64,000 bases of DNA from an uncultured bacterium (GTDB taxonomy: Bacteria > Patescibacteriota > Minisyncoccia > Phycocordibacterales > UBA9973): the NCBI GenBank assembly GCA_903894955.1, contig CAITSA010000028.1, forward strand, positions 8,495 through 72,494. Direction: 5' to 3'. The notes below the pieces were generated by a model. It was not told the origin of the DNA and made no database searches. It saw nothing but the letters and a program-made list of their open reading frames with translations. The position numbers were made by a program, and so were the translations under genes. Shown in pieces: positions 5,713 through 47,933 of this stretch (its first letter is position 1; each line of letters opens with the position of its first letter).

Positions 5713-6195
5713 ATGACACATAAAATGAAATTCGTTGTCCCTGCTGTAGCCTTGAGCTTATTGCTATCCACTGGAATTGCATTGGCTGATACTACTACTG
5801 GAACAGACACAACCACAGGAGCTACCACCACAGCTACAATAGCTACCAGAAAGGCATGTATCGCAACTGCTAAAACTGCACGTGTGGCTGCTGTTAAAAC
5901 AGCATCTGATACGGCAAAGTCAGCTAAGGCTGATGCAAAAACGACAAAAAGCACTGCTCTCGCTACTGCAAAAACGACTAGAGACGCTGCTCTAGTTGCT
6001 GCAAAAGCCAATACAGACAAAAAAGCAAAAGCTGCTGCTATAAAAGTTGCTAATGTTGCTTATAAAACTGCAATTAAGGCTGCTAATGTTGCTTATAAGG
6101 CATCCATCAAGAGTATTGCAACAACGCAAGCTGCTGCAGTTAAGTCTGCTTGGGCTGATTACGCAACAGCTGTGAAAGCTTGCCCTGCTAAATAA
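5713..6195 (+). CDS. small secreted Ala/Thr/Lys-rich low-complexity protein
   Basis: 160 aa with a signal-peptide-like N-terminus (MKFVVPAVALSLLLSTGIALA), internal VANVAYK repeats and a strong terminator directly downstream. Confidence 0.55.
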   Translation: MTHKMKFVVPAVALSLLLSTGIALADTTTGTDTTTGATTTATIATRKACIATAKTARVAAVKTASDTAKSAKADAKTTKSTALATAKTTRDAALVAAKANTDKKAKAAAIKVANVAYKTAIKAANVAYKASIKSIATTQAAAVKSAWADYATAVKACPAK

Positions 6196-6218
6196 ATAAT
6201 AAAAAATATTTAGTATAA

Positions 6219-6247
6219 AAAACACCCCTTAATGGGGTGTTTTTTAT
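6219..6247. terminator. bidirectional rho-independent terminator between convergent genes
   Basis: Hairpin acacccc-ttaat-ggggtgt flanked by an A-run and a T-run. Confidence 0.7.
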
Positions 6248-6267
6248 ATACTTAAAAATAAATTTTT

Positions 6268-6639
6268 TTAAATTCCCATAAGACGATATGAATTTATCTT
6301 TTTTCCAGTATAAATAACTCCCGCTAAACTTAAAAATGCAGACAAAACAAGCATCGGGGAAATGATTTCAAAAAAGCTTCCCCAAATCGTACTAAAAAAA
6401 GAAAAATCAAAATTAAATACTTCAAAAAAGTCTTGAACCATATCGGTAAATTCTGCATCAATTAATTTAGCATTGATGTGCCAAGCAACTACTATAAAAT
6501 TAAAGGCAAGTAAGAAAAAAACAATCACAAGAACTGGCTGTAATTTTTTATAATTAATCCTTTGCATCACAAACTGATGCATTCCTATTGGAACTTCCAC
6601 TAAGGAAATATTATTTAATTGTTCATCAATATTTTCCAT
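6268..6639 (-). CDS. putative membrane anti-sigma factor
   Basis: 123 aa, 2 TM. Immediately downstream of the ECF sigma factor gene. Assignment by synteny only. Confidence 0.4.
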   Translation of the reverse strand: MENIDEQLNNISLVEVPIGMHQFVMQRINYKKLQPVLVIVFFLLAFNFIVVAWHINAKLIDAEFTDMVQDFFEVFNFDFSFFSTIWGSFFEIISPMLVLSAFLSLAGVIYTGKKINSYRLMGI

Positions 6640-6644
6640 AATTT

Positions 6645-7196
6645 TTAAACTAAATAATTTTTTAATTTATCTTTCAATTGCTCTTTCCCCCTACTAATAT
6701 GTGTTTTAACTGTGTTAATAGGCATATCTAATATCTCTGCTATTTCCTGATATTGAAAGCCTTGTTGGTAATATAATAAAAGAACTTTTTTATATTCTTG
6801 ATTGATTTGTTCTAAGGCTTTATCTACATCAGAAACAAGACCCTCCTGAGGGTAATACGCCTTAAAAGAAAGGATTGTTTCATTGTCCGGATCGAGACTG
6901 ATTTCATTTTTTCTCTTTTTGCTTCGAAGAAAATCATACGCGGCATTCGTAGCAATAGTGAATATCCAAGTTTTAATATTTTTTTCTGGGTCAATAAGTT
7001 TACGATTTTTATAAACTTTTATAAAAGTTTCTTGAGTGACATCTTTTGCATTGGGTGAATTTTTTAATATCCGCAAGCAATAGTTATAAATCGCTTTTTC
7101 ATAAAAAGACAATATGTACTCAAAGGCCTCTAAATCACCTGATTTAGCACGAATTAAAATATTCTTGTCTATATTTTGTGTCTTTTCCATATACAA
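6645..7196 (-). CDS. RNA polymerase ECF-type sigma-70 factor
   Basis: 183 aa with sigma region 2 (TQETFIKVYKN...) and region 4 HTH (EIAEILDMPINTVKTHISRG). Confidence 0.85.
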   Translation of the reverse strand: MYMEKTQNIDKNILIRAKSGDLEAFEYILSFYEKAIYNYCLRILKNSPNAKDVTQETFIKVYKNRKLIDPEKNIKTWIFTIATNAAYDFLRSKKRKNEISLDPDNETILSFKAYYPQEGLVSDVDKALEQINQEYKKVLLLYYQQGFQYQEIAEILDMPINTVKTHISRGKEQLKDKLKNYLV

Positions 7197-7230
7197 TAAA
7201 TCCGCAAAACAACCTATAAATTTAATCGTG

Positions 7231-8175
7231 TTATTGGTTAGCTATTTTCTGTTTGAGCTTTTTGTTAAGCGCGACAAATTGTTTTATGCTTAGTCTCTTT
7301 TTACTCCAACCCTCAATTTCAATTTTATCTTTGTTGTCCCTAGGAAGAAGATGAAAATGCGCGTGAAAAACATATTGCATGGCCGCCCTACCATTATTAA
7401 GGAGTACATTATATCCTCCGTGATCACTCTCAAGGACTGCACCGATTTTCTGCACTACCATTAAAAGTTCTTTTAGGATTTTTGGCGGAATCTCGTGAAA
7501 ATAAATATATCTCTTTTTAGGTATTACTAAAATATGTCCATCTTCCTTCGAAGGAATACTAATAGACATGAAAGCCAGAGTATTAGGAGTTTCATAAAGT
7601 CTTATTACAGGAAACCCATTTCTGTGCTCTCTTTTCTTTAATCCTTTAGCAAAATCTTCAAAAAGATATACTCGCTCATTAATATTTTTAAAAAGTTTTG
7701 GAATACTATCATGAATATATTGTATAGTTCTATCAATTTTTCTCTCAACTCCTATTCGATTAGTGTCACAATCTTTCACTTCATCTTGTATATCCCAAAT
7801 AGAACTTTTCTCATCTTTAACTAGTTCGTTGAATAAAATTGCGTGCTGATAATTAAAATTGTTTTTTAAAACATCAACTTGATCTTGGGCCATAGCGATT
7901 ACAAGGTCAAATTTCTTTAATAGCAACTTATTTAATTTATGATGCGCACGATGAAGTTTTTTAACACCAAGAGCATTAAGATCAGCAATAACCTCAGGGT
8001 CAACTTTGTTATTATTTTTTTTCAATCCTGCTGAAAAAACATTCCAACCTTTTATATTGTGTTTATCAAGGTAATGTTTGAGAAGAAATTCGGCAGAAAA
8101 ACTTCTAAAAGTATTCCCGTTGCAAACGAAAAGCACTTTACGAATACTGAGTTTTGTTAATTTTTTTATTTTCAT
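7231..8175 (-). CDS. fusion protein: N-terminal low-molecular-weight protein-tyrosine phosphatase/ArsC-like domain plus C-terminal HIT-family hydrolase
   Basis: CX5R P-loop (VLFVCNGNTFRS) at the N-terminus. Histidine triad HAHFHLLPR near the C-terminus. Confidence 0.65.
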   Translation of the reverse strand: MKIKKLTKLSIRKVLFVCNGNTFRSFSAEFLLKHYLDKHNIKGWNVFSAGLKKNNNKVDPEVIADLNALGVKKLHRAHHKLNKLLLKKFDLVIAMAQDQVDVLKNNFNYQHAILFNELVKDEKSSIWDIQDEVKDCDTNRIGVERKIDRTIQYIHDSIPKLFKNINERVYLFEDFAKGLKKREHRNGFPVIRLYETPNTLAFMSISIPSKEDGHILVIPKKRYIYFHEIPPKILKELLMVVQKIGAVLESDHGGYNVLLNNGRAAMQYVFHAHFHLLPRDNKDKIEIEGWSKKRLSIKQFVALNKKLKQKIANQ

Positions 8176-9890: not shown

Positions 9891-9966
9891 AAGGTATATT
9901 ATAACTAAGAGTGAGTACAAAAACAACTTGCGTATTTTAAAAATATAATATAAAATAATCTGTATA

Positions 9967-10278
9967 GCGGGGTAGAGAAGAGGCATCTCGTAAGGCTCAG
10001 CGGTATAAAATGGGCCCCCTCTTGGGAAACCTTGAGGTGAGCATTCGTCAAATTCGGAGAAATCCTCTCTGTTAATTAATAGAAGGACAATTCCGAGCTA
10101 AATTTTTTAACTTATGTTAAAAATAAATGTGTAGAGACTAGATGGCGAACTCCTTAATCTTTAAATTTATTTTTAGACAGGAGATGGTATAGTCCAGACC
10201 ACAAATTCAATTTGAAGCAGTGAAAACTGAAGTGGTAAAGCATAACCTTAAGACTCACGTTCGATTCGTGACCCCGCA
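9967..10278 (+). ncRNA. ssrA: candidate tmRNA (ssrA)
   Basis: About 312 nt GC-enriched non-coding stretch. The 5' GCGGGG pairs with 3' CCCCGC-A, and a canonical T-arm TCACG-TTCGATT-CGTGA lies immediately 5' of it. A possible tag reading frame GCA..taa tag is at 10041-10082. No G3:U70 pair seen. Confidence 0.4.
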
Positions 10279-10367
10279 ACTCTTCGTCGCAAAGCTCCTC
10301 AGAGTCTGCGACCGCTAGTATCTTTACGAAGAAGATACTGACGAAATATTAATGAGGAAGTAGAAAG

Positions 10368-47194: not shown

Positions 47195-47217
47195 ATTTTA
47201 ATTATATCAAATCTGTG

Positions 47218-47304
47218 CGGAGAGAGAGGGATTCGAACCCTCGGTCCTTTTAAAGGGACGACAGTTTAGTAAACTGTTGGTTTAAACCACTCACCCATCT
47301 CTCC
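47218..47304 (-). tRNA. class II (long variable arm) Ser-type tRNA with anticodon loop TTACTAA (apparent anticodon ACT)
   Basis: Acceptor GGAGAGA/TCTCTCC, discriminator G73, anticodon stem ACAGT/ACTGT, variable arm GTCC-cttt-aaaa-GGAC, T-loop TTCGAAT. Confidence 0.55.
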
Positions 47305-47386
47305 TAAACTTAAAGAGAGTATACCACAAAAAAATGAAAAAATAGTACTAATATGCTAAAGTAATTAAGTTCTTAAAGTATAGAAT

Positions 47387-47475
47387 GGAGCCGTGTCAGA
47401 GCGGTCTAACGTACCTCTTTGCTAAAGAGGCAGGGGCTTCAAAACCCCTCGGCGGTTCGAATCCGCCCGGCTCCG
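47387..47475 (+). tRNA. tRNA-Ser (anticodon GCT)
   Basis: Acceptor GGAGCCG/CGGCTCC, discriminator G73, anticodon loop TTGCTAA, variable arm GGGG-cttcaaaa-CCCC, T-loop TTCGAAT. Confidence 0.8.
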
Positions 47476-47485
47476 CAGATTATTT

Positions 47486-47933
47486 CTACAATATCTCTAC
47501 TTCGTCGGAGGTTCTTTTTACTGGATGCTGTCCGAATTCTCCACGCATAGTAGAAACTACTTTCCCTTGATAGGATGGCTTTGCTTGTGATGCTTGTCTT
47601 ACATCGAGTGACGCCTGAATAACTGGCATTGATATATTTTCTCGTATCCCAGCTTCGACTGTCCATGCCCCTTCCCCAGTACTGGAAGCTTTGCCTGATA
47701 TTTCATTTAAATCTTTCCCATATTTTTTATATCCATCACTCATCCATGAAACCAAACTAGAAGTAATCACACTTCCATGCGAATACACGTCCGTAATTTT
47801 TACAAGATCTAAATTAAATTCTTTTGAATGTCTCATGAGATCAAAGCCTTCTGCGATAGCTTGCATCATTCCATGTTTAACAAGCGAAAAACCATGTTTT
47901 TACCCATTTTTCCAAGCCCAATATATCCTATTT
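47486..47933 (-). pseudogene. gnd: 6-phosphogluconate dehydrogenase remnant (N-terminal 25 codons, frameshift/internal deletion, then C-terminal domain)
   Basis: MKKEIGYIGLGKMGKNMVF (NAD-binding GxGxxG) terminates after 25 codons. A different frame continues as MMQAIAEGFDLM...6PGD C-terminal domain. About 170 central residues are missing. Confidence 0.6.

Follow-up and report, generated by a model that had tools for sequence, protein, structure and literature searches.

The locus described here raises the question of whether a bacterium can encode and keep a serine tRNA with adenosine at the first anticodon position (A34), and which codons such a tRNA would read. According to a 2021 review (PMC8007984), two split codon boxes, Ser/Arg and Phe/Leu, are among those in which A34 is 'universally missing'. 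The locus lies within a 64,000-nucleotide stretch of DNA from an uncultured bacterium (assembly GCA_903894955.1, contig CAITSA010000028.1, positions 8,495 to 72,494), which was analysed as a whole and is called the window. It comprises a gene for tRNA-Ser(ACU), with the DNA anticodon ACT, and a neighbouring gene for tRNA-Ser(GCU). A preliminary description of the sequence had proposed the former as either an unusual isoacceptor or a pseudo-tRNA. With a probability of about 0.7, it is a functional tRNA-Ser(ACU) that was derived from a GCU-type tRNA by a G34A change, is under selection in Nomurabacteria/Paceibacterota, has its own promoter and reads AGU with an A34 that is not converted to inosine.

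Structure and conservation of the tRNA-Ser(ACU) gene

ARAGORN called a tRNA-Ser gene on the minus strand at 47217-47304, with its 5' end at 47304 and the anticodon (act) at gene position 35. In an Rfam search of the whole window, the tRNA model RF00005 matched the same strand at 47218-47304 with 59 bits (gathering score 29; E = 3.2e-10). The cloverleaf was the minimum-free-energy fold at -31.7 kcal/mol (z = -3.2), a result equalled by none of 200 shuffled sequences. In RNA letters, the order is GGAGAGA-UG-GGU-GAGUGGUUUAA-ACC-A-ACAGU-UUACUAA-ACUGU, followed by an 18-nt variable arm, GAGGG-UUCGAAU-CCCUC, UCUCUCC and the discriminator base G73. Read from the sequence, the acceptor stem (GGAGAGA/TCTCTCC) comprises 7 bp and the D stem (GGT/ACC) 3 bp, and the T arm is GAGGG-TTCGAAT-CCCTC. 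The anticodon arm (47261-47277, minus strand) consists of the 5-bp stem ACAGU/ACUGU and the loop U32 U33 A34 C35 U36 A37 A38, according to the sequence and the Rfam alignment. The anticodon occupies 47268-47270, where the plus strand reads AGT. Canonical features were present throughout, with a 7-nt loop containing U33, a purine at position 37 and the GTTCGAATC T loop. The stem ACAGT/ACTGT, the loop TTACTAA and the placement of ACT at positions 34-36, as first read by eye, were thus recovered by ARAGORN and Rfam with a normal 7-nt loop.

Serine tRNAs are class II tRNAs with a long variable arm. In the ACT tRNA this class mark spans 47243-47260 (minus strand) and, in the Rfam alignment and the fold, forms a 4-bp stem GUCC/GGAC within its 18 nt, with an 8-nt loop. 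G73 is located at 47218 and the gene lacks an encoded CCA. The identity elements of E. coli SerRS are G73, G1-C72, G2-C71 and A3-U70, and all of these are present. The initial assignment to the class II serine type, made on G73 and the long variable arm, agrees with ARAGORN, the Rfam score and the sequence. The 11:24 pair is G:C in the window tRNA versus C:G in most phage ACT tRNAs.

The anticodon arm is palindromic, and strand and anticodon had been left to software confirmation; ARAGORN and Rfam settled both as minus strand and ACT. The opposite-strand reading was ruled out, as the plus strand gave no tRNA call and its sole match, RF04351, remained below threshold. This match, 'Plastid-psbl-rps4 3UTR RNA', covered 47218-47269 (+) with 58 bits against a gathering score of 68. 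The RF04351 consensus corresponds to the reverse complement of the 3' half of the ACT tRNA, with the T arm and acceptor end nearly identical, and we take it to be the reverse complement of plastid trnS-GCU. Because the consensus matches a tRNA 3' half backwards, RF04351 can give false matches on tRNA-Ser genes.

Four related loci were reached via neighbouring proteins and not via the tRNA sequence. In the Paceibacterota metagenome-assembled genome (MAG) locus L001, the ACT/GCT pair was present and the ACT tRNA differed from that of the window at 2 of 88 nt. The pair was also found in L408 (GCA_003484005.1), L409 (a groundwater metagenome contig) and L413 (GCA_964524305.1). In these three loci the anticodon stem had changed to GCGGU/ACCGC, and the loop UUACUAA with the anticodon ACT was retained. 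None of the four carried a plain GCT at this position, and a GCT gene stood alongside. All three outcomes that would have spoken against the preliminary description were thus absent: the anticodon was not placed elsewhere, the gene was not a low-scoring pseudogene and the relatives did not show a plain GCT.

Metagenomes were scanned with the window anticodon arm as the pattern and ACT fixed, which matched at least 120 loci. Among the matches listed, ARAGORN called tRNA-Ser(act) at 109 loci, with 90 distinct sequences. Counts from the large scans are lower bounds, and the bacterial breadth they describe is Nomurabacteria/Paceibacterota. Many of the ACT-bearing contigs encode proteins 60-98% identical to the window RecG, reductase and glucose-6-phosphate isomerase (PGI), which identifies them as relatives and not as unrelated matches. 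In an alignment of 92 ACT sequences, 99.8% of the stem cells held standard pairs and 0.2% were unpaired. Compensatory double changes were detected in 14 of 24 pairs, including all four pairs of the variable-arm stem (helix 4). None of five measures was reached by the shuffled alignments (0/500), and slid registers paired only 30-57%. Identical columns included G1-C72 (92/92) as well as G2-C71 and A3-U70 (91/92 each).

Partner gene, genomic surroundings and phage copies

The partner tRNA-Ser(GCU) is located at 47387-47476 on the plus strand, as called by ARAGORN and with 42.7 bits on the Rfam tRNA model. Its body is 62% identical to the ACT tRNA; on this value, a recent duplication of the neighbouring GCT gene was ruled out as the source of the ACT gene. 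The D stem of the partner is very weak (U10.U25, C11-G24, A12.C23), and the gene was not among the gathering-score matches of the whole-window Rfam search. This odd D arm is kept family-wide, with better-pairing variants (GGA/TCT) in some members.

The two genes had been described as convergent. They are divergent: the ACT gene runs from 47304 to 47217 and the GCT gene from 47387 to 47476, so that their 5' ends face each other across a spacer of 82 bp (47305-47386). Divergence was also the most frequent orientation of ACT-GCT pairs over all metagenome loci (42 cases), followed by tandem pairs. Of the 61 metagenome loci with flanks of 700 bp or more on each side, 40 had a GCT gene no further than 600 bp from the ACT gene, and spacers of about 70-120 bp were the commonest arrangement in related loci. 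Comparison of spacers by eye revealed two extended -10 promoter-like boxes. The first, TGGTATACT, is situated about 13 nt upstream of the ACT tRNA (47318-47326, minus strand), and TGnTATACT occurs at the same distance in many related spacers. The second, TGCTAAAGT, lies about 25 nt upstream of the GCT tRNA (47354-47362, plus strand), where related spacers conserve TGYTARAGT. A strict sigma-70 consensus scan reported nothing inside the 82-bp spacer and listed neither box. From their conservation, both boxes are putative extended -10 promoters.

The surrounding genes are those of a bacterial chromosome, and the window derives from a Patescibacteria genome of Nomurabacteria/Paceibacterota type. 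The window encodes PyrG, GatA, SecD, LigA, RecG, type IV pilus proteins and a B12-dependent ribonucleotide reductase. A PGI-like protein near the tRNA pair was most similar to proteins from MAGs of Paceibacterota and Patescibacteria. Homologues of a neighbouring 162-aa protein were about 70-86% identical, and their named sources were Candidatus Nomurabacteria or Paceibacterota. An exact-protein look-up of the adjacent 258-aa open reading frame (ORF) returned no record, and megablast of the ACT locus against phages gave no match. A prophage origin of the window copy was ruled out, given the core bacterial genes around it; phage ACT tRNAs are located in arrays on separate contigs.

Next to the pair, a gnd-like ORF at 47486-47869 (-) of the window comprises 127 aa with the C-terminal 6PGD domain only. 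L001 holds a full gnd-like gene of 310 aa at 6976-7908, including the NAD-binding domain. Relative to the PGI gene, the divergent tRNA pair has opposite orientations in the window and L001. The truncated ORF and the inverted pair suggest that the site of the tRNA pair has undergone a local rearrangement or a deletion. Elsewhere in the window, a tRNA(CAT) gene at 9966-10280 (+) is split after U33 by a 243-nt group I intron (9998-10240; Rfam RF00028, 80 bits, 9988-10216) and was found by ARAGORN only with the intron option. The acceptor stem of the spliced 72-nt tRNA is topped by an A1xA72 mismatch, which gives it an initiator-like appearance.

Other unusual tRNAs were encountered in related contigs. 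tRNA-Ile(TAT) was present in nine ACT-bearing metagenome loci (L288, L304, L306, L315, L340, L348, L354, L368 and L382). tRNA-Arg(GCG) was detected in L331 (5486-5560) and at the edge of the L002 contig. The contigs with these tRNAs bear the ACT/GCT pair, except for one from related Patescibacteria. The anticodons of tRNA-Ile(UAU) and tRNA-Arg(GCG) are listed as normally missing in bacteria (PMC8007984). Their presence may reflect a decoding apparatus that makes little use of wobble modifications and from which TilS or TadA may have been lost.

Phage contigs were a second source of ACT tRNAs. An IMG/VR scan for class II tRNAs with the loop UUUACUAAA matched at least 120 loci. Among the matches listed, tRNA-Ser(act) was called at 119 of 120 loci, with 91 distinct sequences including those of the window and L001; most of these loci were phage-type tRNA arrays, and GCT was also present in one stretch. 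ORFs beside two viral ACT loci matched PHROG families. When base 34 was left open in the viral class II scan, the first 120 matches comprised 89 GCT, 28 ACT and 3 CCT tRNAs, a ratio of 28:89 for ACT to GCT that is valid solely for one loop and T-loop context. In that sequence context, about one in four AGY-type tRNA-Ser genes of phages carries A34. None of the three CCT matches was a serine-type tRNA. Ten tRNA-Ser genes of cultured phages that resemble a common viral ACT tRNA all had TGA or GCT. The only cultured phage found with ACT was the jumbo Xanthomonas phage XaC1 (OR258281.1, 305983-306070; L161 1501-1588). Its tRNA-Ser(ACT) has the loop CUACUAA and an encoded CCA, is labelled merely 'tRNA-Ser' in the record and is the best match that deposited phage genomes provide for the window tRNA, at 79.5% identity. 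The ACT tRNAs of bacteria form a coherent family, separate from most ACT families of phages. Several phage arrays with Ser(ACT) or Ser(GCT), including L051 and L164, hold a tRNA with the anticodon CTA, labelled tRNA-Pyl by ARAGORN, which would be an amber suppressor. Some such arrays hold transfer-messenger RNA (tmRNA) genes, and tRNA-Gly(ACC), another A34 tRNA, occurred in three viral loci.

The origin of the ACT body was traced through viral tRNAs. The arm AACAGUUU-N-CUAAACUGUC occurred in viral contigs with G34 in 92 tRNA-Ser genes and with A34 in one. The viral GCT tRNA L201 is 85% identical to the window ACT tRNA; in the 5' halves, base 34 aside, only two D-loop bases differ. The identical arm with G34 and the likeness to L201 indicate that the window gene derives from a GCU-type tRNA by a G34A change. 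When sequences were compared with the anticodon masked, almost all ACT tRNAs had another ACT tRNA as their nearest neighbour; the change is therefore an old one, passed down within lineages. L343 is a sporadic recent case: its ACT tRNA shares 98% identity with a viral GCT tRNA and has mismatches in the acceptor and D stems.

Proposed decoding of AGU and alternative explanations

ORFs of the window use AGT 254 times and AGC 92 times, in line with the AGU dominance that had been expected. AGA is the commonest Arg codon, with 216 occurrences. The meaning of these codons was assessed by aligning window proteins with 170 homologous ORFs of related loci. Window AGA aligned with Arg in 72% and Lys in 16% of cases, mostly with CGN, AGG or AAA codons; Ser was outside the six commonest residues and Ser codons were essentially absent. 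Window AGT aligned with Ser in 61%, mostly with AGC and TCN codons. AGA as Arg and AGT as Ser indicate the standard code in this lineage, and a tRNA-Ser reading AGA would therefore be harmful. A reassignment of AGA to Ser, which would suit an ICU anticodon, was ruled out because AGA aligns with Arg and Lys codons. The earlier warning that inosine at position 34 would misread AGA was thus well founded.

For the ACT tRNA, we infer the following about its expression, its charging with serine, its A34 and the codons that it reads. Transcription would be driven by the tRNA's own promoter, with the conserved extended -10 box, and would diverge from that of tRNA-Ser(GCU). SerRS presumably charges it via the long variable arm, G73 and the pairs G1-C72, G2-C71 and A3-U70. 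AGU would then be read through a Watson-Crick A34:U3 pair. By analogy with E. coli, A34 is most likely unmodified, or at least not made inosine, and the tRNA would then read AGU almost exclusively, with AGA and AGG remaining Arg. The GCU partner would still be needed for AGC, a codon that ACU would leave unread. An orthogonal tRNA(ACU) tested in E. coli gave 9.4% at AGU and 0.36% at AGG, with AGC and AGA below detection, and no inosine was detected (PMC11066159). E. coli TadA is highly specific for the ACG loop and leaves the ACU anticodon unmodified (PMC11066159). An engineered E. coli Ser-tRNA(ACU) conferred a fitness gain, which is rare among split-box A34 tRNAs and was credited by the authors to a low likelihood of mistranslation (10.64898/2026.05.15.725136).

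Several points weigh against this interpretation. The proposed state of A34 draws on E. coli work with another tRNA body, and unmodified A34 can read beyond U in other contexts (PMC11066159; 10.64898/2026.05.15.725136). The anticodon stem is invariant in the metagenome set because the search pattern fixed it. In AT-rich phage loci, the AGT:AGC ratio was 1.63 with ACT and 1.49 with GCT; codon supply alone thus does not explain which loci carry ACT, and codon usage as the sole driver was rejected. Finally, a TadA-family deaminase ORF (HAE...SCPMC; about 5932-6400, minus strand) adjoins the tRNA-Ser pair on the distant, ACT-bearing contig L307 (GCT gene 6508-6599, ACT gene 6802-6890). It scored 73.8 bits on the NCBIfam TadA model against a cut-off of 150 and was the only TadA-family match among all cellular loci examined, suggesting that deamination may occur in some lineages. 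No TadA or PP-loop (TilS-like) motifs were found in the window; in view of the L307 ORF, a lack of TadA in the lineage is not claimed.

Deamination of A34 to inosine by a TadA-type enzyme, yielding an ICU anticodon that reads AGU, AGC and also AGA, is the strongest alternative, albeit an unlikely one. The ACT loop, of which the XaC1 version is CUACUAA, departs from that of the TadA substrate tRNA-Arg(ACG) mainly at base 36, and an engineered split-box Phe-tRNA(AAA) of E. coli was inferred to become I34 (10.64898/2026.05.15.725136); the L307 ORF points in the same direction. However, TadA substrates have the loop U33-A34-C35-G36 and base 36 is U in the ACT tRNA; the E. coli enzyme was specific for the ACG loop and did not modify ACU (PMC11066159). 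Inosine would also place Ser at AGA, which behaves as Arg in the alignments, and it would make the GCU partner redundant, yet this partner is conserved next door. The single TadA-like ORF in L307 contrasts with the absence of any such ORF from the window and the other cellular loci examined.

It is rather improbable that the ACT variant owes its existence to escape from toxins or anticodon nucleases that recognise G34 in tRNA-Ser(GCU), with spread from phages to bacteria or the reverse. Such a role would fit the high frequency of tRNA-Ser(ACT) in phage arrays (119/120 and 28/120 among the matches listed), the near absence of GCT from the same stretches and codon usage that does not divide ACT from GCT carriers, as well as the likeness of the window tRNA to that of XaC1. 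Phage tRNAs have been proposed to evade host tRNA-targeting defences by changes in the anticodon loop (PMC10264068). The bacterial copies, however, lie in the chromosomal core with conserved promoters and neighbours and not in a prophage, and their family stands apart from most phage ACT families. We know of no nuclease targeting tRNA-Ser(GCU), and none was found in this analysis. For the phage copies, a defence-evasion role is conceivable.

A decaying duplicate or recent G34A mutant of tRNA-Ser(GCU), that is a pseudo-tRNA, or a sequencing error is highly improbable: the sporadic case L343 and the merely sporadic split-box A34 tRNAs of GtRNAdb surveys (10.64898/2026.05.15.725136) agree with it, but the gene has a high score, an intact cloverleaf and a conserved promoter-like box, ACT occurs on more than 100 independent contigs, and the compensatory pairs, the 0.2% of unpaired cells and the retention of ACT where the anticodon stem has diverged, all taken from sequence comparison, effectively refute it. 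Between the two possibilities first raised, the unusual isoacceptor therefore holds.

The preferred interpretation of the window gene as a functional AGU reader invites a wider one, which is put forward tentatively and at somewhat less than even odds. A34 in the split Ser/Arg box would be positively maintained as an AGU reader across Nomurabacteria/Paceibacterota and in about a quarter of phage AGY tRNAs, either as part of a modification-poor decoding system, together with tRNA-Ile(UAU) and tRNA-Arg(GCG), or through an undescribed A34 modification that confines reading to U.

Comparison with known systems

In 4047 bacterial genomes of GtRNAdb, split-box A34 tRNAs were universally absent or sporadic and always occurred with a G34 tRNA, and a set of A34 tRNAs was reported to be absent from phages (10.64898/2026.05.15.725136). 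Both this study and the 2021 review take the absence of A34 as evidence of an ancient decoding constraint (PMC8007984; 10.64898/2026.05.15.725136). The ACT family fits the description 'always with a G34 tRNA' in bacteria. The labels 'absent' and 'sporadic' are contradicted by its lineage-wide presence, the clear selection on its structure and its frequency in phages. The view that such a tRNA is rare in bacteria accordingly holds for the GtRNAdb genomes (10.64898/2026.05.15.725136) and fails for this uncultured lineage and for phage contigs, where the gene is common. No paper on tRNA-Ser(ACU) in Patescibacteria or phages was found in the literature searched, an incomplete library that leaves an earlier mention elsewhere possible. 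tRNA-Ser(ACU) is thus an unrecognised natural exception to the missing split-box A34, with a naturally maintained anticodon, and its lineage-wide presence and frequent use by phages provide a natural counter-example. Three questions become testable: whether A34 is unmodified, how misreading of AGA and AGG is avoided and why the Ser AGY box is permissive. For annotation, ACT genes carry the plain label 'tRNA-Ser', as in Xanthomonas phage XaC1.

The closest relative is tRNA-Ser(GCU) of bacteria, phages and plastids (E. coli serV type). It shares the class II body, G73 and the long variable arm, and the ACT arm is that of 92 viral GCT genes, with 85% overall identity to L201. The difference lies in A34 instead of G34, with AGU alone as the expected codon versus AGU and AGC, and in the coexistence of the ACT tRNA with a separate GCU tRNA of different body. 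Like Mycoplasma tRNA-Thr(AGU) and further natural tRNAs with unmodified A34, the ACT tRNA is genome-encoded and lineage-conserved in an AT-rich reduced genome, with an A34 presumed to be unmodified. Those of the Mycoplasma type serve four-codon boxes, in which reading beyond U is harmless (cited in PMC11066159), whereas the ACT tRNA serves the split Ser/Arg box, in which reading of AGA or AGG would give Arg-to-Ser errors. The family-box A34 tRNAs of AT-rich bacteria are likewise lineage-wide and G34A-derived (10.64898/2026.05.15.725136). They replace the G34 tRNA, whereas the ACT tRNA belongs to a split box and its G34 partner is retained. In the same study, tRNA-Leu(AAG) was reported to be I34-modified in Oenococcus and Streptococcus (10.64898/2026.05.15.725136).

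tRNA-Ile(UAU) of Mycoplasma mobile and 'Ca. Spiroplasma holothuricola' offers a further parallel: its anticodon is among those normally 'missing', and in these reduced genomes it reads the codon directly (PMC5861454). The ACT tRNA differs in the codon box and in the base at position 34. The identical anticodon is found in engineered E. coli ACU tRNAs (Schmitt et al. 2024, PMC11066159; Raval et al. 2026, 10.64898/2026.05.15.725136), which were AGU-selective, had no detectable inosine and were neutral to beneficial for fitness. These consist of an M. jannaschii tRNA-Tyr body or a mutated native E. coli tRNA-Ser, whereas the ACT gene is natural and conserved in its lineage.

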